DNA of 62,777 bases, the filler included, from Stramenopiles sp. TOSAG23-3 (taxonomy: Eukaryota), in assembly GCA_900128585.1 (NCBI GenBank). It is 16 parts of 16 records of this genome, joined end to end, with 100 filler letters (N's around TTAATTAATTAA, not from the genome) between each part and the next. Parts side by side here need not be neighbours in the genome. Positions count along the whole stretch, not along the records: positions 3,954 to 7,802 come from LT644049.1; 15 more parts are not named here. One strand, 5' to 3'. Shown here piece after piece: positions 3,527-54,404 of this stretch. The position numbers were made by a program, and so were the translations under genes. Every line of letters begins with the position of its first letter. The stretch's first letter is position 1. The notes beneath the pieces were generated by a model that was given only the letters and a program-made list of their open reading frames with translations, did not search any database and had not been told where the DNA came from.

Positions 3527-3954
3527 GATGATTTAGCAATACTAATACCCCATTAAAGTGTTGTAATAGACAAAAATTTATGAAGTAGAAGCACACTTTA
3601 AAAAAAAAAATAAATTATATAGCACACTTCTTTTAATAGAATTTATACTTAAAAAAAATAAACACACTTTTTTTTAGAAGAATTTATATTTATTATTAAT
3701 AATGAGATTGACGACACCCCCCGGTTCGAAAATTATCGAATAATTGTTGTTAGTCGTTCTAGTAGATACTATTATTATAATTGAAGATGCTCTGCTTATG
3801 AAAAAAAAAAGGAAAATCAAATCTGTTGTTGTTGTTGTGATATTGTGTATCGGNNNNNNNNNNNNNNNNNNNNNNNNNNNNNNNNNNNNNNNNNNNNTTA
3901 ATTAATTAANNNNNNNNNNNNNNNNNNNNNNNNNNNNNNNNNNNNNNNNNNNNC

Positions 3955-6900
3955 CTGCATACGTTTGCACACTCGGATTCTGTCTATAGCATTGCGTACG
4001 CCCCCGATGGCAAGACACTCGCCGCGGGCGGAGGTGACTACAAAGTGACCGTCTACTCCACTGGCCCGCCTTCCCTCGACAGCGCACTGTTGAGAAAACG
4101 GAATTCGCTCAGCCCGTTGCAGCAATTAATGCTGGGGTCCGTCTTTCAAGATGCAATTTCCGGTGGGGACACCCGGTCCTGGCTCCGGTCGCGCATGATG
4201 ATTGTAGGGCAGGGACGCGTCGGGAAAACCTGCCTGGTCCGCTCGTTGCGCGGAGAGCCGTACGTCCAGCAGGAGTCCACCCAAGGAACGGACATCAGCG
4301 AGTGTATTTTAGACCGCTCGGAGCTGTCCAGCTGGCGGTTGCTATCGGACGACGAGAAAGGACACGAGTACGAACGTGCGCTCGCCGCCGATGTGATTGC
4401 CAAGGAAGTGCGTCGGAAAGAAGCAGAAGAGAGCACGGCGCGCCAAGAGCGGGAGCACCGACCAGAGAAACCGCAGCAACACGTGGAGACAGCGCCCGCT
4501 GACGCCGGCAAGGCGCAGCGCAAACGGGACGCAACCCCCGCCGTGGGCCGTGCCCCGGCCCTGGACACCGCCACCGCCCACGACACGGCGCCCACGGCCT
4601 CCGGTGCCGCCCCTTCTAGCACCCCACGAACCCCGGAACAAGGCACCACAAACCAGATCGAAGAGGCAAACGCCGCAATTATCCGCGACCAAGACACGGT
4701 CAAGACCATCGACGACGCCTTGGTCGCGCAGTTTGTAGAGAACGGCATGGCCCAACGGTTGGTGATCACCGCGTGGGATTACGGCGGGCAATCCGTGTTC
4801 TACGCGCTCCACCACCTTTTCTTGACACGGTACGGAGTCTACTTGGTCGTCTTCAACCTTGAACATTTGAGCGCCGCGACGAGCGACGCGCACTTGGACG
4901 AAACAAAAGAGTTCATCTTGTTTTGGTTGAAAAGCATTGCTCTCCATGCCAAGGACAAAGAGACCGGCACGGTCGCGCCAATCTTTTTGGTCGGCACCCG
5001 CCGTGACGTCGTCGGGCACCAGCCGGAGACACTTCGAGGGATTTCCGAGGCGCACGTCCAGCCGCTGCTCGCGGGCCTGCCGCAAGAAGTTCGCGATGCC
5101 ATCCAAAGACCAGCGTCCCCGGACGAGGCGGGGCCATGGTTTTGGGCTGTCGACAACACCTTTCGTACCACAGTAGAGCAGCCCGAGGACGGCGCTATCG
5201 TGGCATTGCGGGAACAAATTGAAGCGGTCATTTTAAACGACCCGTGTGGGTATGCGAAAATGAAGATCCCGTACAATTGGCTGCAGCTGTGCGACTTGCT
5301 GCAAGAAATGCAAAAGCCCAAACAGGACGATGCCGCGGCCAACGCAGAATCGGAAAAGCCAGTGGCAAAGAAGTTGTCTCCGCGAATTACCTTGGAGCAA
5401 TTCCAAACGCTGGCGGTGAAATGCAACATCACTGATGAGAAGCAGCACGCCTTGCTCTTGAATGTCTTCCACGAGCTGGGTGTCTTGGTCCACTTCAACA
5501 CTCCCTCCGCATTGAACGCGACGGTCGTTCTGCAGCCGCAATGGCTCATCGACTCGATTTCCTTGGTCATCCGAGATTATCGTCTCCATGGGCACATGCA
5601 CGAGGCGCTGATTTCCGAGTTCAAACGGTACGACACGGACCACGACGGGCACCTGAACAAAGACGAGCTCGCCTCGTTACTGCGAGAGGCCGGGGAGACG
5701 AACGTGTTGTCAACGGATCTGTTGACACTGATGGACATTGATCACGACGGAAAAGTCAAGGACGAGGAGTGGGTAAGCTTTGTCATCAACCAGTTCCGGC
5801 GAACGGAGCATGAGCGGGAAAAAGATGGCCTTCGTGCGTTCGTGTCCCTCCTCGAAGGCCACATTAAGAGCGCATTGAACGAGTTGCGAGGGGAGTGCGC
5901 ACAGGAGTGGGCCGATCTGACCCAGAAAGGGTTTTTGCACCGAAAGTTGCTCGACGAGGTCGTCTGGCAAGGCTACGAAGCGGAAACTCGTTTCTTTCTC
6001 ACTGCGCTCATGATCAAGTTTGGTCTCCTCACTCGTCTGTGGAACAACGACTTGTTTCTAGTCCCGAGCTTGTTGAGGGACAAGCCTGGGTCCAAGGATG
6101 AGCCGCCCGACCAACGGTTTCTGCGCGTCCCGAACGCGTCGAATTCGTTCCGGTTTGCATTCGAGTTTCTGCCGACCGGATTCTTCGAACGGTTGCAGGC
6201 GTACGCGATCGCAACCAGCCACAGCTACCGGGCCGGCGAAAACGTGAAAGGCACGCTCTTTCGGAACGAGGCGATTCTGTCGTTTGGGGAGAAGACGTTT
6301 TGCTTGCTTCGACAGAGTGGAGGGAGAAACATTGTCGGTACGGTCCATGCAGCTGCAGACTCGGATGCGTTTCTGGAATTTCAAAGCGAGCTCTCTGTCC
6401 TTGTGAGTGATGTGAACGTAGACTTTTTCAAAAACCAGTTGAAGTTTAAGCTGTTCTTGGAATATGCCGCAGAAGGAGTGGACGTCTCTGTCCCTGTCCA
6501 AGAGGCATACGAGGCTGGCGCCAAGCAGTTGCTGACACCCGACATGGAAAACCATGGGATACCCTCCGGTGCATTCCAACATTGGTTTGCAGAGGACGAG
6601 GACGAAGGTGGCGGGGCCCGTGACGCAGGCCAGCCCGTCCGGCAGGACGATATCGGGAACGCAATGCAGGCCCGTGGAGGGAACAAACCAAAACTGCCCA
6701 TCGCCTCTGGTGGCAACGCAACGTTGGACACACTCCGTAGCGTGCGAAAAATTGCGGTCATTTTCGGAATCAACGATTATACTGAAACCACTTTGAACGA
6801 TTTAAGTTACGCCGTGGCCGACGCAGGGTTGGTCTCGCAGACGTTGAAAGCGTGTGGGTGGGAAATATGGAATAATAAGCCGTTTTTGAACGCTGAGTGC

Positions 6901-7785
6901 ACAAAAAATAATATTATATACGCTTTGGATGCAATCGCGGACGAATTCTCGAGCGCGGGCGAGGACGACAAATCGTTGCCAGACAATGCAGGGCAATTCA
7001 TTTTTTATTTTGCCGGGCATGGCAAAAAAAAGAAGGGGAACGTGGGGGAGTTGTGCCTGAGTCAGTATAACCGCAAAAAGACAAGCACACAGTACAAGGT
7101 GTCATTGATAAAATACGCCATGGAAGGGCTGCCCGTGTGTCAAAGTTTAATTGCCATTGATGCCTGCCATTCCGGTTTAATTTTTGGGGAAGACGGTGGG
7201 TCCGCGACGCTGCCGCGGTCGTATTCCGCAGCCCAGTGCTTTCCGCTTAACGAACACCCAGTTATTCACGCAATGACAGCGTGCACGGGTTCAGAAGTGT
7301 CAAACGAGACAGGCGGCCATGGGATCTTTACAAAATTTCTGTGTGACCAAATCACCCACGAGCTGCACAAAGACGACGAAGCACCGATCGTCTCAGCTCG
7401 GCACGTGTTTCAAAAGCTGTCCAGCCGTGTCCTAGGTCGCTCTAACAGACAGCAAAACCCATTGTATGGGCAGTTGTTTGACAAGCATTTCGAACAAAAG
7501 TGCCATGGAGAGTTTTTTTTTACGTTGCCGAAACATGATGTGAAAAGCGCAAAGAGTGAGAAAGAAATCGAACTGGAAGATGTTCGAAATCAAATCAAAG
7601 AGATTATGGCACAATACAATCAAGCAGTAGAAGATGAAGATGATGATTTGGAGGCAGACTTGGAAGAGAAAAAGGTTGAGCTGATCAAACGAAGAAAAGA
7701 ACTTCAAAAGATTATCAAAGAAGGCAGACCTTCTACTCCAAGTGGGAGCGGGCTGAATGTTGTGAGGGCAAAGCGAGGGGAATGA
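3955..7785 (+). CDS. Roco-family protein: WD40 (5'-truncated) - ROC GTPase - COR with EF-hand pair - caspase/metacaspase-like (peptidase C14-like) domain - C-terminal coiled coil
   Basis: The frame is open from the contig edge, reading LHTFAHSDSVYSIAYAPDGKTLAAGGGDYKVTVYS (WD40). ROC motifs: GQGRVGKT (4207), STQG, WDYGGQSVFYALHHLF (4774), FLVGTRRD. COR motifs: IPYNWL, FHELGVLVHF, VVLQPQWLID, FLVPSLL, FLPTGFFERL. EF hands: DTDHDGHLNKDE and DIDHDGKVKDEE. Caspase motifs: AVIFGINDY, FYFAGHG (His 7018), IDACHSG (Cys 7165), GHGIFTKFL, QQNP. Confidence 0.9.
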   Translation: MHTFAHSDSVYSIAYAPDGKTLAAGGGDYKVTVYSTGPPSLDSALLRKRNSLSPLQQLMLGSVFQDAISGGDTRSWLRSRMMIVGQGRVGKTCLVRSLRGEPYVQQESTQGTDISECILDRSELSSWRLLSDDEKGHEYERALAADVIAKEVRRKEAEESTARQEREHRPEKPQQHVETAPADAGKAQRKRDATPAVGRAPALDTATAHDTAPTASGAAPSSTPRTPEQGTTNQIEEANAAIIRDQDTVKTIDDALVAQFVENGMAQRLVITAWDYGGQSVFYALHHLFLTRYGVYLVVFNLEHLSAATSDAHLDETKEFILFWLKSIALHAKDKETGTVAPIFLVGTRRDVVGHQPETLRGISEAHVQPLLAGLPQEVRDAIQRPASPDEAGPWFWAVDNTFRTTVEQPEDGAIVALREQIEAVILNDPCGYAKMKIPYNWLQLCDLLQEMQKPKQDDAAANAESEKPVAKKLSPRITLEQFQTLAVKCNITDEKQHALLLNVFHELGVLVHFNTPSALNATVVLQPQWLIDSISLVIRDYRLHGHMHEALISEFKRYDTDHDGHLNKDELASLLREAGETNVLSTDLLTLMDIDHDGKVKDEEWVSFVINQFRRTEHEREKDGLRAFVSLLEGHIKSALNELRGECAQEWADLTQKGFLHRKLLDEVVWQGYEAETRFFLTALMIKFGLLTRLWNNDLFLVPSLLRDKPGSKDEPPDQRFLRVPNASNSFRFAFEFLPTGFFERLQAYAIATSHSYRAGENVKGTLFRNEAILSFGEKTFCLLRQSGGRNIVGTVHAAADSDAFLEFQSELSVLVSDVNVDFFKNQLKFKLFLEYAAEGVDVSVPVQEAYEAGAKQLLTPDMENHGIPSGAFQHWFAEDEDEGGGARDAGQPVRQDDIGNAMQARGGNKPKLPIASGGNATLDTLRSVRKIAVIFGINDYTETTLNDLSYAVADAGLVSQTLKACGWEIWNNKPFLNAECTKNNIIYALDAIADEFSSAGEDDKSLPDNAGQFIFYFAGHGKKKKGNVGELCLSQYNRKKTSTQYKVSLIKYAMEGLPVCQSLIAIDACHSGLIFGEDGGSATLPRSYSAAQCFPLNEHPVIHAMTACTGSEVSNETGGHGIFTKFLCDQITHELHKDDEAPIVSARHVFQKLSSRVLGRSNRQQNPLYGQLFDKHFEQKCHGEFFFTLPKHDVKSAKSEKEIELEDVRNQIKEIMAQYNQAVEDEDDDLEADLEEKKVELIKRRKELQKIIKEGRPSTPSGSGLNVVRAKRGE

Positions 7786-27954: not shown

Positions 27955-30900
27955 TCAACGACGAAACGAACGCTTCATGCTCGGCCAAACATCTTTCATG
28001 AGGGGACGGTCGGACGGCTTTTGGGACCAGCACTGGACCATGATCTTGGTGATTATGCCTCGAACAAAGCCTTCCTTGGAATTATCTTCCGACTCTGGGG
28101 GGTCGTAGGGTGGCCGTGCCCCGTTTAAGACTTTGCGAATGATCCCGTGGCCCGTTTCTTCCTTTTCCCACGGGACGTTAAACGTGAGTAAATTGTACAG
28201 TACCATGCCGTATGAGTAGGCGTCCGAAGGGGCATCAAAACTGGCAGTATGGCTTGTGAACGTCTCTGGGGCAAGAAAGCGAACGTCTCTTACATCGTTG
28301 CTAAACGCGGAGACCGTCCCAGATATGGAGCACATGGATGAAACGCTAAGTTTGCACCGGCCATCCGCCGCTACCAGAATGTTGCTGGATTTTATTTTTC
28401 CGTGCACGAACTGTTTTTCGTGCAGGTACGCCAGGGCTTCTGTAATGTCCATGGTGAATTTCATTGCTTGGTAGATGTCGAACAATTCCCCGTCTGCCTT
28501 CCGCTTCTCAATGTACGTTTTGAGGTCCCCCATTTTCGCAAATTCGGTTATCAAGTACCGCAGCCGTTTCCCTGGGTAGTCAATGCTGCCGAGGCCGTAA
28601 AAGAGCAGCAGGGTTGGGCCTCTTAGCTGTTGCAGGGCGACTATTTCCTCGCCCCACTCCTTGTTAGCCTTCTTTGAGGTTGCCCGATAGCATTTTATCG
28701 CGACGTCAATGCCCTCCAGCACCGTGTATGTCCCCCGAAAAATATCGGCAAACTGGCCTTTGGCGATGTGCTCCTTTGATTGTATTTCTGAGTACGGTAT
28801 TTTCCACCCCCTTTGGACGTGTTCAACTTCACTCCATCTGTCGGTTATTTGTCGTTCCGTTTCGGAAATCAAATTTTCTTGCAAATCGTTGTTGTCCACC
28901 AGCATGTTGTAGTTGACTTCGACATTGCGTTTTCGAATGTACCCTCGCAAGGAGACAGCGGCCACGACCACGAAAATTGACACCGCGACGACGACAATTA
29001 TACCAATGGGGTTGATCTCACAGTCGACTTTCCGATAAAACGAGAATTTATTATCTCCGCACTCACAAATTCCTGTATCGAAGCGGCACTCAAAACCTTC
29101 TGCGCATTTGCACCGGTGCTGGCATTGGGAGCCCCAAAAACCCTTCTTGCATCTTTGGCAGTTGGCCTGGTACTGGTCATCAATAGTGCAAAATTCCGCG
29201 TTCGCCAACAAGGCCCGATTGAATGTCTTTTTGCAGCTCGATATGGTTTTGCTCCCCGCCCCTTCGGTCCAGGACGCATTCGGGCATTTGAGGCACGAGT
29301 CGCTGGCACGATCGGATTTGTAATACCCGACCTGGCAGTTTTGGCAGTACGTCTCGCCCATGCCTGGGTGACGGTCGACGGAGTACTGGCCATTGGGACA
29401 GTGGCTTACGTAGACGGAGCTTCCTTGCGAAAATTTGTACGTATCGAACAGCAGGCCACCGACGTGCAAGATCAGGTGCGGCGCCGAGGAGGTGCTGGGC
29501 GGCACGAGAACAGCCATCCCGCGATGACGGGGGTACGGGTTCTGCACGTCCCAGTGCCACCCCGAGGCGCTGGGGTCTTCAGGGTTGTAAGAGAACGTCG
29601 CCTGCCCGCCCGCCCCGATGGCGACGACGGTGTTATGGTTTCCGCCGGTCATCACGGCCTTTTCCGCGTTCAACGTGTCGGGGAAGATTTTAGTTTTAAC
29701 GCAGACCCAGCGCATTGCTCTCTTACCGCTGCGGCCTGGTTCCTTCAAACACTCTTGGGAGGTGCAGGTCAGTATCCACGTGCACCGCGTCTCGTCAAAG
29801 ACCAGCAAAACGACGGAAACGCCACCGAAACCGTTGCCGGACTGGAGCCCGGCCATCAAAGGCAAGGACTTGGCCACCTTTGGCCCACCGTCGTCGGGGG
29901 TGACTTCCCGCCACCTGCACGATGCCACGGTGGTGCTGCTGCAGGAAAAGTACCAGACTTCCGTCGAACCGCCGCAGTACATCAGGACCCCGGACGCATG
30001 ATTGGATTCCCACGTCACCGCGGCATTTCCATTCCGCGGGGGTTCCGAGTCTTCTTCCTTACGGGCCAGTTTTGTCCACTCGAACGTTTCCCCATCCAAG
30101 AGCCACGATGTGCTTTGCAACCCGTCCTCCACTCCGGCCGTCGTCGCAATGCCGCCGTGCAACAGAAACATTTCTTTTCTCAAGCCTTCTTTCGCCTTCA
30201 TCGTGAAGCGCGTAAGCATCCCGCGGTGGTGCTTCGGCGGCCATAGCTCGGTTTTGTTGTCCACACGGACCCACGATTTAGACCGCGCGTCAAGGTACCA
30301 AAGGTGGTCAGTGAGTGCTTCGCATTCTTCCCTGCCGGGAGACGATGCCTCCGCGGCGAACCCGCCGAACAGGAGCACCCCGCCGCGTGCCGACCCCGTG
30401 ATCCCACTCTCGAAGCGGCCCGGAATCTCTGGCCCCGTGTCGGCCTTGACGTCTGCAAACGCCCACGCCCGCACGTTGTCCTTCACGATGGTCCCTTCCC
30501 ACCTGCTGTCGAGCGATTGCACACCATCGTTGCCGCCCAACACCAACACACTGTTTTGGCCGTTCTTTACAAACCCGAACTGGCGCCGCCGCTGCCCTGG
30601 GGCACCACTTTCTATGGAGGTCCAGGCCCACTTGTTGTCCGCGCCGTTGAACACGAACATGGCGCCGATGTTCTGTTGACGCTGGAACTTGGTTATCCTG
30701 TCCTTCCAGTCGAGTTCCATGCTATGGCCCGTGCAGTTGGGGCACTGAATTGCTGTGGCGAACAGGACGACGGCGTTGCGTTCCTTGAACGAGACAGCCT
30801 TGTACGTTCCTGCGGGGAAGAACACCGATGGGCACTTGTTGTCCTTTCGGCAGCTCGCAGTCATTTCTAGCTCGGGAGGCGCGGAGTCCAGCTTTTCCCA

Positions 30901-31452
30901 CCGGTTTGTGTTCCTGTCAAACAGCCAGGTCCACGGGCTGGGGGTGTCGACGCCGAAGGCCTTTTGCCCGCCAAAAAGGAGCACCTTGTCCCGGTTCAGC
31001 AGGGCCATTTCTGCTTTCACCAGGGACCCCGGCCATTGCCCATCGCCGTCGTTCTCCCGCTTTAGCATGGCTTCTTCGTCGTTCTCCTTCCCGAGCGGGG
31101 ATATGTTGTCCCAGAACACGACGTTGGTGGCGCGATCGTAGGTGGCTTTCCAGAAAAGCCGATAAACTTGTTCCTTGTCCCTCAGCACCAAGTCGGCCCC
31201 GCCGTACAGCAGAAACTCGCCGTCCCCCGATTTGGCAAGTGCAAAGTCGCGAATTTGCGGGAACGCGTGGTTTTCCGTTCTCGTTTCGAACCGCACCTCC
31301 CGTTTCCACGGGCAGTACCGCGAGCTGGACCCATTCGCGGCAAGGTCCACGTCGCTCGCCTGCAAGTAGTCAACCACAATCTGGGCATCAAACACCCAGT
31401 GCAACGAATCATTGCCCCCAGCCTCTTCACCTTCATCTTCAGCCTCTCCCCC
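27955..31452 (-). CDS. Receptor-like TKL pseudokinase: Kelch-like propeller repeats - Cys-rich (TNFR/ephrin-receptor-like and EGF-like) - TM - kinase fold; 5'-truncated
   Basis: Repeated LLFGG/LLHGG..W.Y/W blades; CQNCQVGYYK..CLKCP..SWT..GSKTISSC; CKKGFWGSQC; TM IGIIVVVAVSIFVVVAAV; IAKGQFADIF, VAIK, HGKIKSSNIL, FLAPE, SDAYSYG, CWSQKPSDRP. Confidence 0.88.
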   Translation of the reverse strand, partial: GGEAEDEGEEAGGNDSLHWVFDAQIVVDYLQASDVDLAANGSSSRYCPWKREVRFETRTENHAFPQIRDFALAKSGDGEFLLYGGADLVLRDKEQVYRLFWKATYDRATNVVFWDNISPLGKENDEEAMLKRENDGDGQWPGSLVKAEMALLNRDKVLLFGGQKAFGVDTPSPWTWLFDRNTNRWEKLDSAPPELEMTASCRKDNKCPSVFFPAGTYKAVSFKERNAVVLFATAIQCPNCTGHSMELDWKDRITKFQRQQNIGAMFVFNGADNKWAWTSIESGAPGQRRRQFGFVKNGQNSVLVLGGNDGVQSLDSRWEGTIVKDNVRAWAFADVKADTGPEIPGRFESGITGSARGGVLLFGGFAAEASSPGREECEALTDHLWYLDARSKSWVRVDNKTELWPPKHHRGMLTRFTMKAKEGLRKEMFLLHGGIATTAGVEDGLQSTSWLLDGETFEWTKLARKEEDSEPPRNGNAAVTWESNHASGVLMYCGGSTEVWYFSCSSTTVASCRWREVTPDDGGPKVAKSLPLMAGLQSGNGFGGVSVVLLVFDETRCTWILTCTSQECLKEPGRSGKRAMRWVCVKTKIFPDTLNAEKAVMTGGNHNTVVAIGAGGQATFSYNPEDPSASGWHWDVQNPYPRHRGMAVLVPPSTSSAPHLILHVGGLLFDTYKFSQGSSVYVSHCPNGQYSVDRHPGMGETYCQNCQVGYYKSDRASDSCLKCPNASWTEGAGSKTISSCKKTFNRALLANAEFCTIDDQYQANCQRCKKGFWGSQCQHRCKCAEGFECRFDTGICECGDNKFSFYRKVDCEINPIGIIVVVAVSIFVVVAAVSLRGYIRKRNVEVNYNMLVDNNDLQENLISETERQITDRWSEVEHVQRGWKIPYSEIQSKEHIAKGQFADIFRGTYTVLEGIDVAIKCYRATSKKANKEWGEEIVALQQLRGPTLLLFYGLGSIDYPGKRLRYLITEFAKMGDLKTYIEKRKADGELFDIYQAMKFTMDITEALAYLHEKQFVHGKIKSSNILVAADGRCKLSVSSMCSISGTVSAFSNDVRDVRFLAPETFTSHTASFDAPSDAYSYGMVLYNLLTFNVPWEKEETGHGIIRKVLNGARPPYDPPESEDNSKEGFVRGIITKIMVQCWSQKPSDRPLMKDVWPSMKRSFRR

Positions 31453-31631: not shown

Positions 31632-31948
31632 ATTTTTTTTTGGATCCGCCGGTGATGATGACGATACGTAGAAGGTACCGTACCTGATTGGCACTGATAT
31701 TACATTATTATGGTATTAGCTAATAATATAAATACGTCCTCGTATTCCAATATTAATATTTAATTCCCCCACCTAATAGTCTATAATAATATTCTTCATC
31801 TTCTTCTTCGATCTTTTTTATAATTTTTTATAATTTTTATTATTATTATTCCTCCTCCTCCTCCTAGCACCTCCTCCTTCCTACAAAAAACCGACTGCTT
31901 CTACTACTACCGGTAAAGTTGCAAGATAAACACGAAAAGTATACTGTT

Positions 31949-33700
31949 ATGAAAAATGCAAATGTTTTTCAGTGCACAATTGCTGTTCGTCTAAAACCAA
32001 ACGTAGACCAAAACCAAACGGACCGAATATTTCCTGAGGCATCACTGAAGGACCAGGCGATTAGGAGGCAAATGAATTTCTTAAGCAACGCCTCTTCCTT
32101 TGATCACCCGAGTTTCTCCTCTGCAGTTGTGGAAGCCTACCGAGTTGTCGCAAGGACCGAAATTCGGAACGCGCCCGACAGGGACAAGTCAACATGCACG
32201 GGACAATACCTTAGGATGGGGCAATTTATATCAATAACTCATCGCATCAACTCTGCCGGTGGATTTATATTTCTTCGTCTGGAGGACGAAAGCGGTTACA
32301 TTGAGGCGAGCAAGGACAGCATAAAAGCACTCCCAATAAGTACCGGGGTATACGTGTACGAGGTTACCAACAGCGCAGGACTCGCCGTGCGCTCATTTCC
32401 GGACTGCGACAAAAGGTACCGACTACCATACTTCATCGACAAGGGTTCATACATAGCTTCGAACATGCGGGTCCGAGGCGCCAGGGGGGAGTGGTATCCA
32501 AGAATTGAGGGTGTTGGATGGCTATTTGAGACGAGGGATAAGAGCACAACATTGATTCGTAAACCCGTGCAGGTCGGTACGTTCGTTTACATGGTGCAGA
32601 ATGGAAAGCATGGATTGGATGCGAGGGTTCACCCAGACTACAGAAAAGACTTGAAAATTATTCCAAAGACTGCGTACAGTTCGGGGATGATCGTCTCCGC
32701 ATCATTTCGAGTCCAAGGGCAATTTGGAGACTGGTTTGTTCGATTGGACGCTGGCGGTTGGTTATTCGAGTCTCGGTTAGGACAGCAGACGCTGGTCCAG
32801 TGCCCCGTCGAGTCGGGCAACTTCATATATTCTGTTCTCAACAAAATGGGATTAGCCCTTAGAACGTACCCAGACTACCGACCGTCGCTTCGGGTAAGCC
32901 CCCAAGTCCTATTTACCCCAGGAAAAATAGTCACTGGGACCGAACGGGTCCAGGGCGAGTTCGGTGATGTTTTCGTCAAGATGAAAGACTTTCCTGGGTG
33001 GCTTTTTGAGACACGGTTAGGAAGCCAAATGCTGGCGCCTGTAGCAAGGGGAGCATCGGCGAACACATTTGCTCGGGTAAGATCGCCTGTAAAAGCGGCA
33101 CAAGGACCGCAGAGGGAGCTTTCGTTCCCGTCCGAGTACTACAATATAAAGCGCACGCTCAGGCTTTACTTTGCTGGGGTATGTGTCAATGGCAAAAAAG
33201 GACCATGCGGCTCTGCGGCATACTGCAAGTCCACCAGCATTGGGGAAGAGGGAAAACTAATTTTCGAAAGCATGGTGAAACTGGACGGAAATTTCACACG
33301 GAACATAGCCGAGTACTCGGCGTTGATACTTGCATTACAGCAGCTAGAGAAATACGTAACCGAGGAAGATTGTTCAGCAGAGGTTGAGATAGTGGGCGAT
33401 TCTGAATTGGTGGTAAGCCAGATGAAACGGATGAACCAAGTTAGCAACGGTGTCCTCTCCAGGTACTACCGAGACGCTTCATCTACTTTGCAACGATTAA
33501 AGAAAAGTTTATCCACCACTAGTGTCAAATTTAAAGCCATTCCTACAGTATTGAACGGGACAGCAACAAAGCTAGCAAAGAAAGCCCTTCAACTCAATGC
33601 TAAAAAAATTGTTCGCGAACCAACAGAAGAAGTCCTGAGCAAAATTATTCTCGGTGGCTCCACTTTCGTCGTCCGCAGCAAGCACGGCAATTCTGCATGA
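31949..33700 (+). CDS. Protein with 3-4 tandem ~77-aa SH3-like repeats and a C-terminal RNase HI-like domain (catalytic Asp residues substituted)
   Basis: Repeats Y.V.N..GL..R..PD......G.......RV.G..G..(F/Y)......GWLFE(T/S)R. RNase H motifs LYFAG.C..G..GPCGSA, TRNIAEYSALILAL, VEIVGDSELVVSQM, NGTATKLA. Confidence 0.8.
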   Translation: MKNANVFQCTIAVRLKPNVDQNQTDRIFPEASLKDQAIRRQMNFLSNASSFDHPSFSSAVVEAYRVVARTEIRNAPDRDKSTCTGQYLRMGQFISITHRINSAGGFIFLRLEDESGYIEASKDSIKALPISTGVYVYEVTNSAGLAVRSFPDCDKRYRLPYFIDKGSYIASNMRVRGARGEWYPRIEGVGWLFETRDKSTTLIRKPVQVGTFVYMVQNGKHGLDARVHPDYRKDLKIIPKTAYSSGMIVSASFRVQGQFGDWFVRLDAGGWLFESRLGQQTLVQCPVESGNFIYSVLNKMGLALRTYPDYRPSLRVSPQVLFTPGKIVTGTERVQGEFGDVFVKMKDFPGWLFETRLGSQMLAPVARGASANTFARVRSPVKAAQGPQRELSFPSEYYNIKRTLRLYFAGVCVNGKKGPCGSAAYCKSTSIGEEGKLIFESMVKLDGNFTRNIAEYSALILALQQLEKYVTEEDCSAEVEIVGDSELVVSQMKRMNQVSNGVLSRYYRDASSTLQRLKKSLSTTSVKFKAIPTVLNGTATKLAKKALQLNAKKIVREPTEEVLSKIILGGSTFVVRSKHGNSA

Positions 33701-51140: not shown

Positions 51141-54100
51141 AAAAGAAAGTCTTTTATAGGAGATCTTCAAATTGAAACTAGTAGTGACGGAGACGTTATC
51201 ACTTTCGAAAAAGTTCACCTTTTTACCGTTTTGAATGTATGTACAGAGAACCAGGATAAATCCAGAGATTACTTCGTTATTACAATTTCAGATTGTCATA
51301 CAATTCAAGTGCATATATTATCTGTGAAGTTCGATAACAAATGCCAAAACCCAAATATTATTCAAAAGTCTCGCCTGGAACTTCCTCATTGCCAGACTCT
51401 GAGTATATCCCAAGGTAACGAAATTGACCCGTACGTATTTTTTGTCGCAACTCTCAATGAAGGTGTTGTCCTGTGGAAGGTTAATGAGCAGAACTTCTCC
51501 GTTAAAAAAGTTACTAAGTTTGCAGAAACCTCAATTCTTTCTGTTTCAATAAACAAGCCGCTCAACATTGTGGCCACTGGAAACCTGGACGGGGAGCTTT
51601 GTATATGGTCAATTGAAAATATTATGAAGAAGGGAGGCGATAACCCCCTGTCGAAGGCAGCAATGATTTTAATGAAATCCAGAAATGAAAAAGATAATGT
51701 TATGCTTTTAAAGCGTCCACAAAATGTAGGAGGAATACCACATCTTCTCAAATGGTACAGCGAAGATGAAAACAGCGGGACTGACGTACTTGTATCTGCT
51801 TGCCAGACTGGCTTGTTGACAATCTGGAAGTATGACAAAGACGATGCTTATTTGGAGAGAATTACGGATTTAAATCGATCAATTGTTGGCACTTCTTTCA
51901 ACGACCTCTTTATCCTTAAAAACTATATTTACGCAGTACACGAAGAAAGTGCTGTGCGCGGTTGGGATATAAAGGAGGTTCTAAGACGCGCAGACCTTCT
52001 TTCAGCTGATAAGAACAGTTGTGTTGGCCTGAAACAAACAAAGACAGGCAGGTGCGTTAGTGCTGATGGTACTCGTGGGGGATCAATAGGTGAGACGGGG
52101 AAAATATTTGTGTGGAATATGGTTTCAGGGAACGTTGTTGAATGCCTTATGTGCAAGTCAGCAAATATACTGTGTTTTAGTGACCACGGAGACCACGTCA
52201 TGGTTGGGACATCGATGGGCAAGGTCTTCCTGTGGGAGTATCATCTCAAGTACGAATTTAAAGGAGAAATAGTTAACGTAGGACACACTAACCCATCTGC
52301 ACTCTCTTTTTCAGCTGACATGCAGCATGCTGCTGTCGGGTGCGAGAATGGGCTTTTCTTTCTGGTCAATTTAGATACGAAAAAGGTCATCAATGTGAAA
52401 CAAAGTCTGCTTGCAAATGGCAAATCTAGCAATGACGTAAAAGGCGCATGGACGCATCTAGATGCTGTAGCTGACGTAACTTTCTGCGAATTGGAAGAAC
52501 AGGAAATAGTTGAACTCCAGGAAATAAACGAAAGAAACATGAAAGGGAAAAATATGAAACAAAGGAGAGGAAACATACTAATGCCGCAAAAGAAGAAAAC
52601 AGGCAACTTTACGAGAAAGAAAACGTTTCAAAAAATTGCAAAACTTCTGGTCTCCACGTCAACGAAAGGGAGAGTTACAGTGTGGTCTTTAGACACGTTC
52701 GAAACTATTTTAGACTACTCTTCTCCCAATGTGCATGCAGACGGCGACTTAAAAATTTTGCTGACGGAACAGAAAATAAAGTTAGTATCTACTCCATCGA
52801 TGCCTCGACCTGGAAGCGAAGACTATAATTCAGTGGTGATTGAAGATCTTGAAGACATTGATTCCTTGTTTTGTAAAGAAAAATGTAACTTGACCAGCAC
52901 TGAAGGTCCTGAAAAAGCAGTGCTGGATCCATTGAAACGAAAAGTTACGAAACATCGAGTTTCCAATCTACTTTTTACGGGTTTAACAGTTGGTGCCAGG
53001 ATTGTCTGTTCTGGGTTCGGATTTGCTGGGTTGTACTATTTGCTTGGATTCAGCGATGGTACAGTTCAACTGTATGAATCTAAATCAGGGCGGTTAATCG
53101 GCACATTTCTATGCGCATCTTCAGTCTCATCAATTTCCGTACCTGCATGGTATAGCCAGGTTGGGCATTTCATTTGTACCGATTCTAATGGAAAAGTTTA
53201 TGTTTTAAGCACAGACTTTGTTGGTGTTGTAAGGCGCACAACTTCTCCAACTATGGTGAATAGCACTGGCTCTCTACTTCATCCTCAAAAATCACTTACC
53301 CAGTACAAAATTGCGTCTCTAAAATGCCGTCACAGTGGAGTGGAAGCATACAGCACAAAGCTTGGATCGAAAGAGTACTGCAAGTTTTCTACACAATCGA
53401 TCAATAATTCTTTACGCGACTGTTCGATTGTAAATGTGTCTGTAAATTGGAAACCAACACGCAAAAAATTAAATCTATTTTGGAACTATATGGGGATCAA
53501 GTGGATACCTCACGGTGAAATAGACCGCGAAGAAAAAAGTGCTAAATTATTGAAAGATAGTTGCATCGTTGTCTTAGGAAATATGCACGGGTTGGCCAGC
53601 GCATTGCACGTTGGGCTGAAAAAGATGTTGACAGACGGGGTTGCCGTTGCAGCACAAAATGCGGTTATAGTGACTAATGGCATCGACAACGAAGTGAATA
53701 GAATCCTAGCCTTTCGCGAAGATCCTTATCTGACGAAGGGAGATCGAGAGGAGCCTGTGGTTATTGGAGTGGTACCTGCCGAAGGCGTGGACATTGGCCC
53801 AAAATTCAAGCCTTCTAAATCCGAGGTGGAGTCAATGCGATACTTTGAGAAAGTTGAAGCAATTGAACAGCATAGTTCCAGAATCATTCGCGTGCACGGA
53901 TGTCGTCATTTGAGTTCCCGGCGTTGCGTAATCGAAGAACTGCTTCTTTCTATTCGTAATATGGACGCGGGAAGCTTAGGAATTTTGATAAGCGGCGACT
54001 TTGGCAGTCTGAAGGAGCTAGAAACATTGATGCAATTGAATATGCCAATAATTGTAGTGGAAGGTAGTGGTGGGGTGGCAGATCATATTTCAGAATTAAG

Positions 54101-54404
54101 AAAACGTCGACTACCAAAAAAGTTTGGGTGGGGAAAGCTAAAGGCAACCATAGAAAGCGAAAGAGCTTGGGTGTTGCCACGTTCAGGACGCTCAAATTCG
54201 ACCCTATACCAAGACGACGTGACAAAAGCTTTACTTGTTTATCCAAAGCTGCACGTATTCAAAATTACCGATCCACCGAAAAAGTTGAGCGAAAATATAA
54301 AAAGACTGCTTCGCCCAGTAAAGCACAAGTTTAGAAGAGCAGTAAGAAGGATGTCCACTTTGCTTGGTTTAACAAGGGTTTACGACGAAAAAGAACAGCA
54401 GTAG
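51141..54404 (+). CDS. WD40-repeat protein with C-terminal SLOG (LSDAT/TRPM-N-like) domain; 5'-truncated
   Basis: The frame is open from the contig edge. Multiple blades (VATGNLDGELCIWS, GKIFVWN, GKVFLWE, GRVTVWS, DGTVQLYE). C-terminal AVAAQNAVIVTNG.D.EV, VVIGVVP, LISGDFGSLKEL, PIIVVEGSGGVAD. Confidence 0.8.
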   Translation, partial: KRKSFIGDLQIETSSDGDVITFEKVHLFTVLNVCTENQDKSRDYFVITISDCHTIQVHILSVKFDNKCQNPNIIQKSRLELPHCQTLSISQGNEIDPYVFFVATLNEGVVLWKVNEQNFSVKKVTKFAETSILSVSINKPLNIVATGNLDGELCIWSIENIMKKGGDNPLSKAAMILMKSRNEKDNVMLLKRPQNVGGIPHLLKWYSEDENSGTDVLVSACQTGLLTIWKYDKDDAYLERITDLNRSIVGTSFNDLFILKNYIYAVHEESAVRGWDIKEVLRRADLLSADKNSCVGLKQTKTGRCVSADGTRGGSIGETGKIFVWNMVSGNVVECLMCKSANILCFSDHGDHVMVGTSMGKVFLWEYHLKYEFKGEIVNVGHTNPSALSFSADMQHAAVGCENGLFFLVNLDTKKVINVKQSLLANGKSSNDVKGAWTHLDAVADVTFCELEEQEIVELQEINERNMKGKNMKQRRGNILMPQKKKTGNFTRKKTFQKIAKLLVSTSTKGRVTVWSLDTFETILDYSSPNVHADGDLKILLTEQKIKLVSTPSMPRPGSEDYNSVVIEDLEDIDSLFCKEKCNLTSTEGPEKAVLDPLKRKVTKHRVSNLLFTGLTVGARIVCSGFGFAGLYYLLGFSDGTVQLYESKSGRLIGTFLCASSVSSISVPAWYSQVGHFICTDSNGKVYVLSTDFVGVVRRTTSPTMVNSTGSLLHPQKSLTQYKIASLKCRHSGVEAYSTKLGSKEYCKFSTQSINNSLRDCSIVNVSVNWKPTRKKLNLFWNYMGIKWIPHGEIDREEKSAKLLKDSCIVVLGNMHGLASALHVGLKKMLTDGVAVAAQNAVIVTNGIDNEVNRILAFREDPYLTKGDREEPVVIGVVPAEGVDIGPKFKPSKSEVESMRYFEKVEAIEQHSSRIIRVHGCRHLSSRRCVIEELLLSIRNMDAGSLGILISGDFGSLKELETLMQLNMPIIVVEGSGGVADHISELRKRRLPKKFGWGKLKATIESERAWVLPRSGRSNSTLYQDDVTKALLVYPKLHVFKITDPPKKLSENIKRLLRPVKHKFRRAVRRMSTLLGLTRVYDEKEQQ

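Follow-up and report, generated by a model that had tools for sequence, protein, structure and literature searches.

In the Apaf-1/caspase-9 apoptosome and in the fungal NACHT/NB-ARC-WD40 NLRs (HET-E/HNWD), a WD40 sensor is combined with an NTPase switch and a death effector, and the WD40 repeats of the fungal NLR-like proteins are internally conserved, with few variable positions. The Roco proteins CtRoco and LRRK2 undergo COR-mediated, nucleotide-dependent self-association, and initiator caspases and MALT1 are activated by proximity. Research on Roco proteins has mostly concerned LRRK2, and the targets of the GTPase switch are known for few of them; the caspase-like proteases of protists are frequently linked to cell death, and their upstream activators are poorly known. 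Here we describe a gene at positions 3955–7785 of a 62,777-nucleotide stretch of DNA from Stramenopiles sp. TOSAG23-3 (GCA_900128585.1; the whole stretch is hereafter called the window). Its product, P0001, is a marine protist Roco protein whose C-terminal module, usually a kinase, death, or TIR domain in this class, is instead a caspase-like protease.

A comparable design is on record in bacteria. In the computational work of Kaur, Burroughs, Iyer, and Aravind (2021, eLife, PMC8195603), at least 24 different domains, TIR, caspase, and trypsin among them, occupy the C-terminus of bacterial LRR-AP-GTPase(Roc)-COR proteins, and the LRR-Roc-COR-effector proteins are interpreted as counter-invader systems. 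P0001 shares with the AP-GTPase proteins, as that work presents them, N-terminal repeats, a Roc/AP-GTPase, COR, and a C-terminal effector drawn from a variable set (here a caspase), together with the proposed sensor-switch-effector arrangement. However, it differs from their description there in its eukaryotic host, in WD40 repeats in place of LRRs, in EF-hands within COR-A, in a long insert in Roc, and in a helical hairpin following the caspase domain; unlike those proteins, of which one host often has several paralogues with different effectors (PMC8195603), it is not encoded by a prokaryote, and its nearest Roc-COR relatives are from protists. An earlier reading of this DNA made from sequence only (the sequence-only reading) had regarded the architecture as apparently uncharacterized, a view that the computational description of bacterial Roc-COR-caspase proteins in PMC8195603 does not support; because these have been described, P0001 represents a new eukaryotic variant and not a new category. 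In full-text searches of the literature (figures and supplements may list more), we found no description of a eukaryotic Roc-COR-caspase protein, only the bacterial one. The partners of eukaryotic Roc-COR modules, including those of the brown-algal LRR-ROCOs, are kinase, death, TIR, CARD, and helicase domains in the available text of PMC11378527, where "protease" and "caspase" do not occur.

Like the eukaryotic Roco proteins (LRRK1/2, DAPK1, and those of Dictyostelium and brown algae), P0001 has a Roc-COR tandem preceded by repeats, and its predicted fold is that of LRRK1/2 and CtRoco; unlike LRRK1/2 and DAPK1, it is without a kinase or death domain. To our knowledge, no member of the repeat-Roc-COR-caspase design has been studied experimentally. 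The presence in unicellular eukaryotes of the bacterial repeat-Roc-COR-effector design, with TIR and caspase as alternative tails, bears on the sharing of immune and death machineries across the domains of life, and because a candidate sensor, GTPase, Ca2+ module, and protease occur in one natural chain, the activation pathway is directly testable.

The window (1–62777) consists of 16 contigs of 3.81–3.85 kb, longest first, joined by N44-TTAATTAATTAA-N44 linkers (for example, at 3854–3953), and genes on either side of a linker are not genome neighbours. The Roco-caspase gene lies on the second contig (3954–7802). P0001 is a single frame on the plus strand (3955–7785, 1276 codons), open at its 5' end and with its stop codon at 7783–7785, and it runs in order through a WD40 array, Roc with its insert, COR-A with an internal EF-hand pair, COR-B, a flexible linker, the C14 domain, and a helical hairpin. 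The features are as follows (pLDDT, predicted local distance difference test).

3955–4056 (+): last WD40 unit of a tandem array, truncated by the contig start (Pfam WD40, residues 2–34; 4056 joins back to 3954; copies at 90% or more)
4183–5235 (+): Roc GTPase domain (Pfam Roc and Ras; motifs; high core pLDDT; Foldseek matches to CtRoco, LRRK1/2, and MbRoco2)
4345–4719 (+): low-complexity 125-residue insert in Roc, between switch I and G3 (pLDDT ∼30–50)
5272–5589 (+): first part of COR-A (Pfam COR-A; pLDDT ∼90)
5590–5802 (+): EF-hand pair within COR-A (Pfam EF-hand_7, EF-hand_1, EF-hand_5, and EF-hand_6; pLDDT 45–55)
5890–6537 (+): second part of COR-A and COR-B (pLDDT 80–94; COR fold of CtRoco: 3dpt, 3dpu, 6hlu)
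6538–6738 (+): acidic, Gly-rich flexible linker following a conserved HWF motif (pLDDT ∼25–35)
6739–7494 (+): C14 caspase-like protease domain (Pfam Peptidase_C14; model; Foldseek)
7552–7728 (+): C-terminal helical hairpin, coiled-coil-like, then a conserved tail (model helices 1126–1151 and 1154–1181, pLDDT 82–91)

In the sequence, none of the GTPase motifs is disrupted, nor are the two EF-hand loops or the His/Cys dyad, and every Pfam domain match to P0001 exceeds its curated cut-off, the single WD40 unit excepted. The sequence-only reading had placed a WD40 repeat, a ROC GTPase, COR, and a caspase-like domain in one frame, and this is borne out by the frame, by the Pfam profiles that it proposed to run (WD40, below the cut-off on its own, Roc, COR-A, and Peptidase_C14), and by the model; the motifs and codon positions that it gave (GQGRVGKT, WDYGGQ, FAGHG with His at 7018, and DACHSG with Cys at 7165) are exact. 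Although its domain set stands, it lacked the EF-hand pair, the 125-residue Roc insert, the conserved C-terminal hairpin, and the tandem-repeat nature of the WD40 edge. In an AlphaFold model of 1200 residues of P0001, built on a 50-row alignment (mean pLDDT 67.7; predicted template modelling score, pTM, 0.59), Roc, COR-A, and COR-B are well modelled, the EF-hand region poorly, and the insert (∼125 residues) and linker (∼65 residues) are disordered. Foldseek ranked CtRoco (6hlu, 3dpu), LRRK1, LRRK2, and MbRoco2 (4wnr) at the top for this large model, with MALT1 after them. A look-up of residues 626–1276 in the ESM Atlas gave best scores of 0.76–0.77, which are under the level of a meaningful match, and PADLOC returned only its generic caspase model (29.3 bits).

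The joining of COR to caspase is confirmed as genuine by separate copies and by divergent relatives. The 90% cluster of P0001 has six members. Four of these (P0002, P0172, P0175, and P0176; 1319–1330 amino acids, at least 90% identity) come from four different contigs of 4.5–5.4 kb in ENA and JGI assemblies, and their mutual differences are scattered. At 32–35% identity, P0003 (EukProt, 1584 amino acids, E 7e-141) and P0022/P0177 (JGI, 1658/1709 amino acids, E 4e-150) show the order thioredoxin-like N-terminus, Roc, COR-A, EF-hand, COR-B, C14, and helical tail; their thioredoxin-like domain reads WCPPS, with the second Cys replaced. In a further fragment (P0130, 511 amino acids), COR-B is joined to C14. 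The order of repeat, GTPase switch, and caspase proposed from the sequence is real and recurs in other organisms. Outside the WD40 unit, 18 of 27 single-letter differences in public contigs are synonymous, which indicates that the frame of P0001 is under purifying selection in nature. In four runs (X2, X4, X15, and X17), we found no Logan contig over ∼6597–6925 that would bridge 6500–6800; these contigs are short, and the gap proves nothing. Separately, a 141-residue protein (P0070) is 99% identical to P0001 over ∼70 residues around G3 (window ∼4680–4890), with unrelated residues on both sides; it may reflect mis-assembly, a pseudogene, or an exon of a copy with different splicing.

P0001 has the sequence features of a Roco protein, namely, a Roc domain with G1, G3, and G4 and COR directly C-terminal of it. 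The Roc motifs are G1 GQGRVGKT (4207–4230), switch I STQGT (4276–4290), G3 WDYGGQ (4774–4791), and G4 GTRRD (4993–5007); Pfam Roc matches residues 261–349 with 44.1 bits (cut-off 27), and the Ras/Roc P-loop matches residues 81–115. The Roc insert is unmatched by any relative outside the 90% cluster, and in P0003 a Pfam ZZ zinc finger occupies its site. For COR-A, the score is 75.9 bits (cut-off 35.3); the piece comprising the second part of COR-A and COR-B is matched by 80 of 170 relatives, and Pfam COR-B is found on the orthologue P0003. Between the two halves of COR-A lies the EF-hand pair (residues 551–602; EF-hand_7, 33 bits versus 30), with two canonical 12-residue Ca2+ loops, DTDHDGHLNKDE (5632–5667) and DIDHDGKVKDEE (5734–5769). 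Its sequence matches in the Protein Data Bank (PDB) are calmodulins, and the EF-hand is kept in all three full-length orthologue groups (also in P0003 and P0022).

Following the linker, in whose HWF motif W877 and F878 are invariant in six sequences, Peptidase_C14 (PF00656) matches residues 931–1171 with 60.8 bits (cut-off 21.4; 2e-16). FAGHG (7009–7023) contributes His1022 (codon 7018–7020) and DACHSG (7159–7176) contributes Cys1071 (codon 7165–7167); both residues, together with Asp956 and Asp1069, are invariant in the six family sequences and across a 30-row alignment with bacterial caspases among its members. Modelled alone on this 30-row alignment, the domain reached a pLDDT of 85.8 and a pTM of 0.89, and Foldseek matched it to MALT1, GSU0716, metacaspases, and caspases (probability 1.0, TM 0.5–0.6), with 13–16% identity to solved structures; the best structural matches are MALT1 paracaspase chains, and the similarity to metacaspases is no better. 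By Pfam profile, predicted fold, and dyad, the domain belongs to Peptidase C14. Searching the PDB with the family caspase profile at E up to 1 returned no metacaspase, only ancestral caspase-3/6/7, GSU0716, and MALT1, and sequence comparison suggests no kinship with canonical metacaspases (types I–III; Yca1, TbMCA2, AtMC). NCBIfam NF047832 (EACC1-associated bacterial caspases) scored 51.9 bits, below its cut-off of 140. Like MALT1, metacaspases, and orthocaspases, P0001 combines a caspase fold and His/Cys dyad with an acidic residue two before the Cys; it is set apart from them by the low identity to solved structures, the lack of a metacaspase match by sequence, and the sub-cut-off NCBIfam score given above. 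We take this acidic residue and the second conserved Asp to be the S1 pocket residues that serve metacaspases and paracaspases for Arg/Lys, and by this analogy the substrate would probably be cleaved after Arg or Lys. Because no metacaspase is matched by sequence, P1 specificity and Ca2+ behaviour are not confidently transferable from that group. P0003, P0022, and P0194 likewise end in a helical acidic/basic C-terminus.

At the other end of the protein, the lone WD40 unit of P0001 scores 23.9 bits against the Pfam cut-off of 27, and two units in the 99% copy P0002 score 57.8 bits. In contigs of three of four runs (X2, X15, and X17), position 4056 rejoins 3954 through an identical 23 letters, which defines a tandem unit of 126 nucleotides (42 residues), and copies at 90% identity or more have two units, or two and a fragment, preceding VTVYSTGPP. 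Among nine units from five assemblies, 34 of the 42 positions are invariant and three more show variation solely in the units that open three gene calls; these calls begin MAR(AR)VFEHS, possibly but not certainly the native start. The remaining variation is confined to unit positions 20, 21, 23, 39, and 41, at which the seven remaining units all differ from one another. Consistent with this, all six read differences within the window's WD40 unit are non-synonymous and fall in codons 11, 27, and 29, the same variable unit positions. Because variation is focused on five positions and the read differences are all non-synonymous, the units look sensor-like, and the sequence comparison supports the view that they would behave as a diversifying sensor. 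The pattern resembles that of the fungal NLR-like proteins and also recalls the WD40 proteins that Hu et al. (2017, PMC5587647) class as "highly repetitive"; the criterion there, an internal identity of at least 0.7, is set for arrays of six or more repeats, whereas here each assembly holds at most two units and a fragment.

This maximum of two full units and a fragment reflects a collapsed array: short-read assemblers collapse near-identical arrays, so that each assembly, that of the window among them, is broken or shortened at this point. Over 3954–4082, contigs are approximately six times as deep as in the remainder of the gene (70 versus 11 in X2; 79 versus 12 in X4). An estimate of six or seven units from this ratio was rejected because contig depth gives no copy number. 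One 43-letter contig within the unit reaches a depth of 171, and other genes may contain the most conserved stretch of the unit as well.

An exhaustive HMMER search with residues 77–1276 retrieved 4776 proteins (E ≤ 0.001), 95 of them with E ≤ 1e-30; nearly all cover Roc-COR alone. Among 170 relatives, the caspase piece is matched by six and the EF-hand piece by three. The nearest named Roc-COR clusters (Cymbomonas, Hondaea, Aplanochytrium, and MMETSP transcriptomes) are from protists, and several end in TIR. In a 50-member alignment of the six caspase-bearing sequences and 44 top matches selected by length, TIR_2 was found in nine and LRR_6 in six. When the caspase-domain profile was compared with long proteins, Roc/COR occurred only in P0002 and P0003 among the 120 of 285 matches listed; this set is not exhaustive, as P0022 is missing from it despite carrying the domain. 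The others listed are mostly WD40-, TPR-, FGE-sulfatase-, or kinase-caspases, the few with a named source are bacterial, and such bacterial proteins are, among these matches, the nearest long relatives outside the family. A word-index search with residues 900–1276 gave four matches only. The closest caspase found outside the Roco-caspase family (31% identical) is encoded by a JGI metagenome contig (L001, 653–3127, plus strand), whose 825-residue product has an EF-hand pair directly before C14, plus ankyrin repeats; here, EF-hands are independently paired for a second time with a caspase of the P0001 type. The scan of JGI metagenome contigs with the family alignment that yielded L001, its best match, kept 80 loci and no near-identical contig, and among viral contigs 14 loci at 24–30% identity were found, with no close viral copy.

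Of 24 listed runs (11 studies), 20 contained the gene stretch or part of it, and they include marine metagenomes from several studies. Six of these runs are RNA, three of which are PolyA or oligo-dT libraries, and contigs of two RNA libraries fall on the Roc, COR, and caspase parts at 90–100% likeness. The gene is therefore likely expressed, and its presence in marine metagenome and RNA runs across 11 studies shows that it is no one-sample curiosity.

The sequence-only reading had likened P0001 to Apaf-1/caspase-9 and the fungal NACHT-WD40 NLRs. Consistent with this, the protein is eukaryotic, places repeats, switch, and caspase in one order, and has sensor-like WD40 units that are very similar to one another with few variable positions, that is, a candidate WD40 sensor, NTPase switch, and death effector. 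However, its switch is a Ras-like GTPase with COR, its repeats are N-terminal, and its protease is in the same chain. No Pfam match to NB-ARC or NACHT was found in P0001 at E up to 1, which places it outside the STAND NTPase receptors (Apaf-1, NLR); membership of that class thus falls away, and the comparison is an analogy only.

On the basis of what is established for Roco proteins and caspases, we favour, as somewhat the likelier account, an immune or cell-death role for P0001 as a sensor-switch-protease gated by ligand, GTP, and Ca2+. The near-identical WD40 units would form a propeller that recognizes a changing ligand, non-self or altered self. Ligand binding would free the Roc-COR switch, whose nucleotide state would alter COR-mediated self-association as in other Roco proteins, and Ca2+ at the EF-hand pair of COR-A would provide a second input. 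The flexibly tethered caspase domains might then be brought together, or be unmasked or released from the C-terminal hairpin, and cleave their substrate, with cell death or an immune-type response as the outcome. In addition to the WD40 pattern, we count for this account the swapping of effectors on a shared Roc-COR chassis, evident in the TIR tails within the 50-member alignment and in the caspase, TIR, and trypsin tails of the bacterial Roc-COR proteins, and the link to Ca2+, evident in the EF-hands of the orthologues and in the EF-hand/caspase pairing of L001. A bolder form, which we hold tentatively, is a single-chain "GTPase apoptosome" in an abundant marine protist, in which a propeller of WD40 units, kept uniform but hypervariable at select positions, would recognize a virus, parasite, or non-self factor, the Roco module would combine this signal with Ca2+ sensed by the EF-hand pair of COR, and the tethered caspase would execute cell suicide. 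If this were true, eukaryotes would have in P0001 a first example of an immune or cell-death receptor that couples a Roco switch to a protease in a single chain, and P0001 would give direct molecular access to programmed cell death in marine plankton.

Several observations weigh against the immune or cell-death account. The orthologues have a thioredoxin-like domain in the place of WD40, and a repeat sensor is therefore no constant of the family. The case for WD40 diversification comprises only nine units, from short-read assemblies prone to collapse repeats, and the second EF-hand loop is non-canonical in P0003 and P0022. Relative domain placement is poorly modelled, as the whole-model pTM indicates, and so is the EF-hand region (pLDDT 45–55). 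Further, sequence comparison at E up to 1 leads to no metacaspase of solved structure, and presence in RNA libraries is no proof of transcription.

Among the alternatives, a regulated signalling protease with no death or immune role survives best, and we regard it as possible though rather unlikely: GTP and Ca2+ would control limited proteolysis, restricted to few substrates, as for MALT1, for example, in stress or the life cycle, and WD40 would be a scaffold. This fits the MALT1 paracaspase chains as top structural matches of the protease domain, the thioredoxin-like N-terminus of the orthologues, which would suit redox or stress sensing, and the combination of EF-hand and caspase with ankyrin repeats in L001. 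However, near-identical units with five variable positions and only non-synonymous differences would be unexpected for a housekeeping scaffold, and sister Roco proteins carry TIR. It is improbable to a much greater degree that the caspase-like domain is catalytically silent and serves the Roco GTPase as a dimerization or scaffold module; the divergence reflected in the NCBIfam score (51.9 bits versus 140) and in the lack of a solved metacaspase by sequence would suit such a role, but His1022, Cys1071, Asp956, and Asp1069 are invariant in six members and in 30 sequences including bacterial caspases, and the fold is modelled at high confidence (pLDDT 85.8). Finally, an assembly or amplification chimera of unrelated Roco and caspase genes, to which the short contig ending in a repeat and the very small size of the window's likely source runs (8–16 million letters) might have pointed, is ruled out for practical purposes by the whole fusion on four separate contigs from two data sources, by the same domain order in 32–35% relatives, and by the COR-B-C14 joint of P0130.

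Elsewhere in the window, eukaryotic genes include a tubulin-tyrosine ligase, a multidomain acetyl-CoA carboxylase, and a Kelch/ephrin-receptor-like kinase, and some contigs hold a pair of oppositely oriented genes and AT-rich spacers; together, these indicate that the window is genomic DNA of a compact eukaryote. An Rfam scan of the whole window gave no match. A further architecture of the repeat-plus-nucleotide-sensor type from the same organism is found at 51144–54404 (+), where the product of a 5'-open frame (P0324, 1086 residues) matches WD40 beta-propellers and, after them, a SLOG domain (LSDAT_prok, 2.3e-14; LSDAT_euk, 3.2e-05). The kinase frame (27955–31449, minus strand, 1164 residues) joins Kelch repeats and an ephrin-receptor-like module to a C-terminal Tyr/Ser-Thr kinase domain and resembles a receptor kinase. 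At 31868–33700 (+), on a contig that opens with a (TTC)n run, a 610-residue frame matches RVT_3 (RNase H-like, "reverse transcriptase-like") and may be the remnant of a mobile element.

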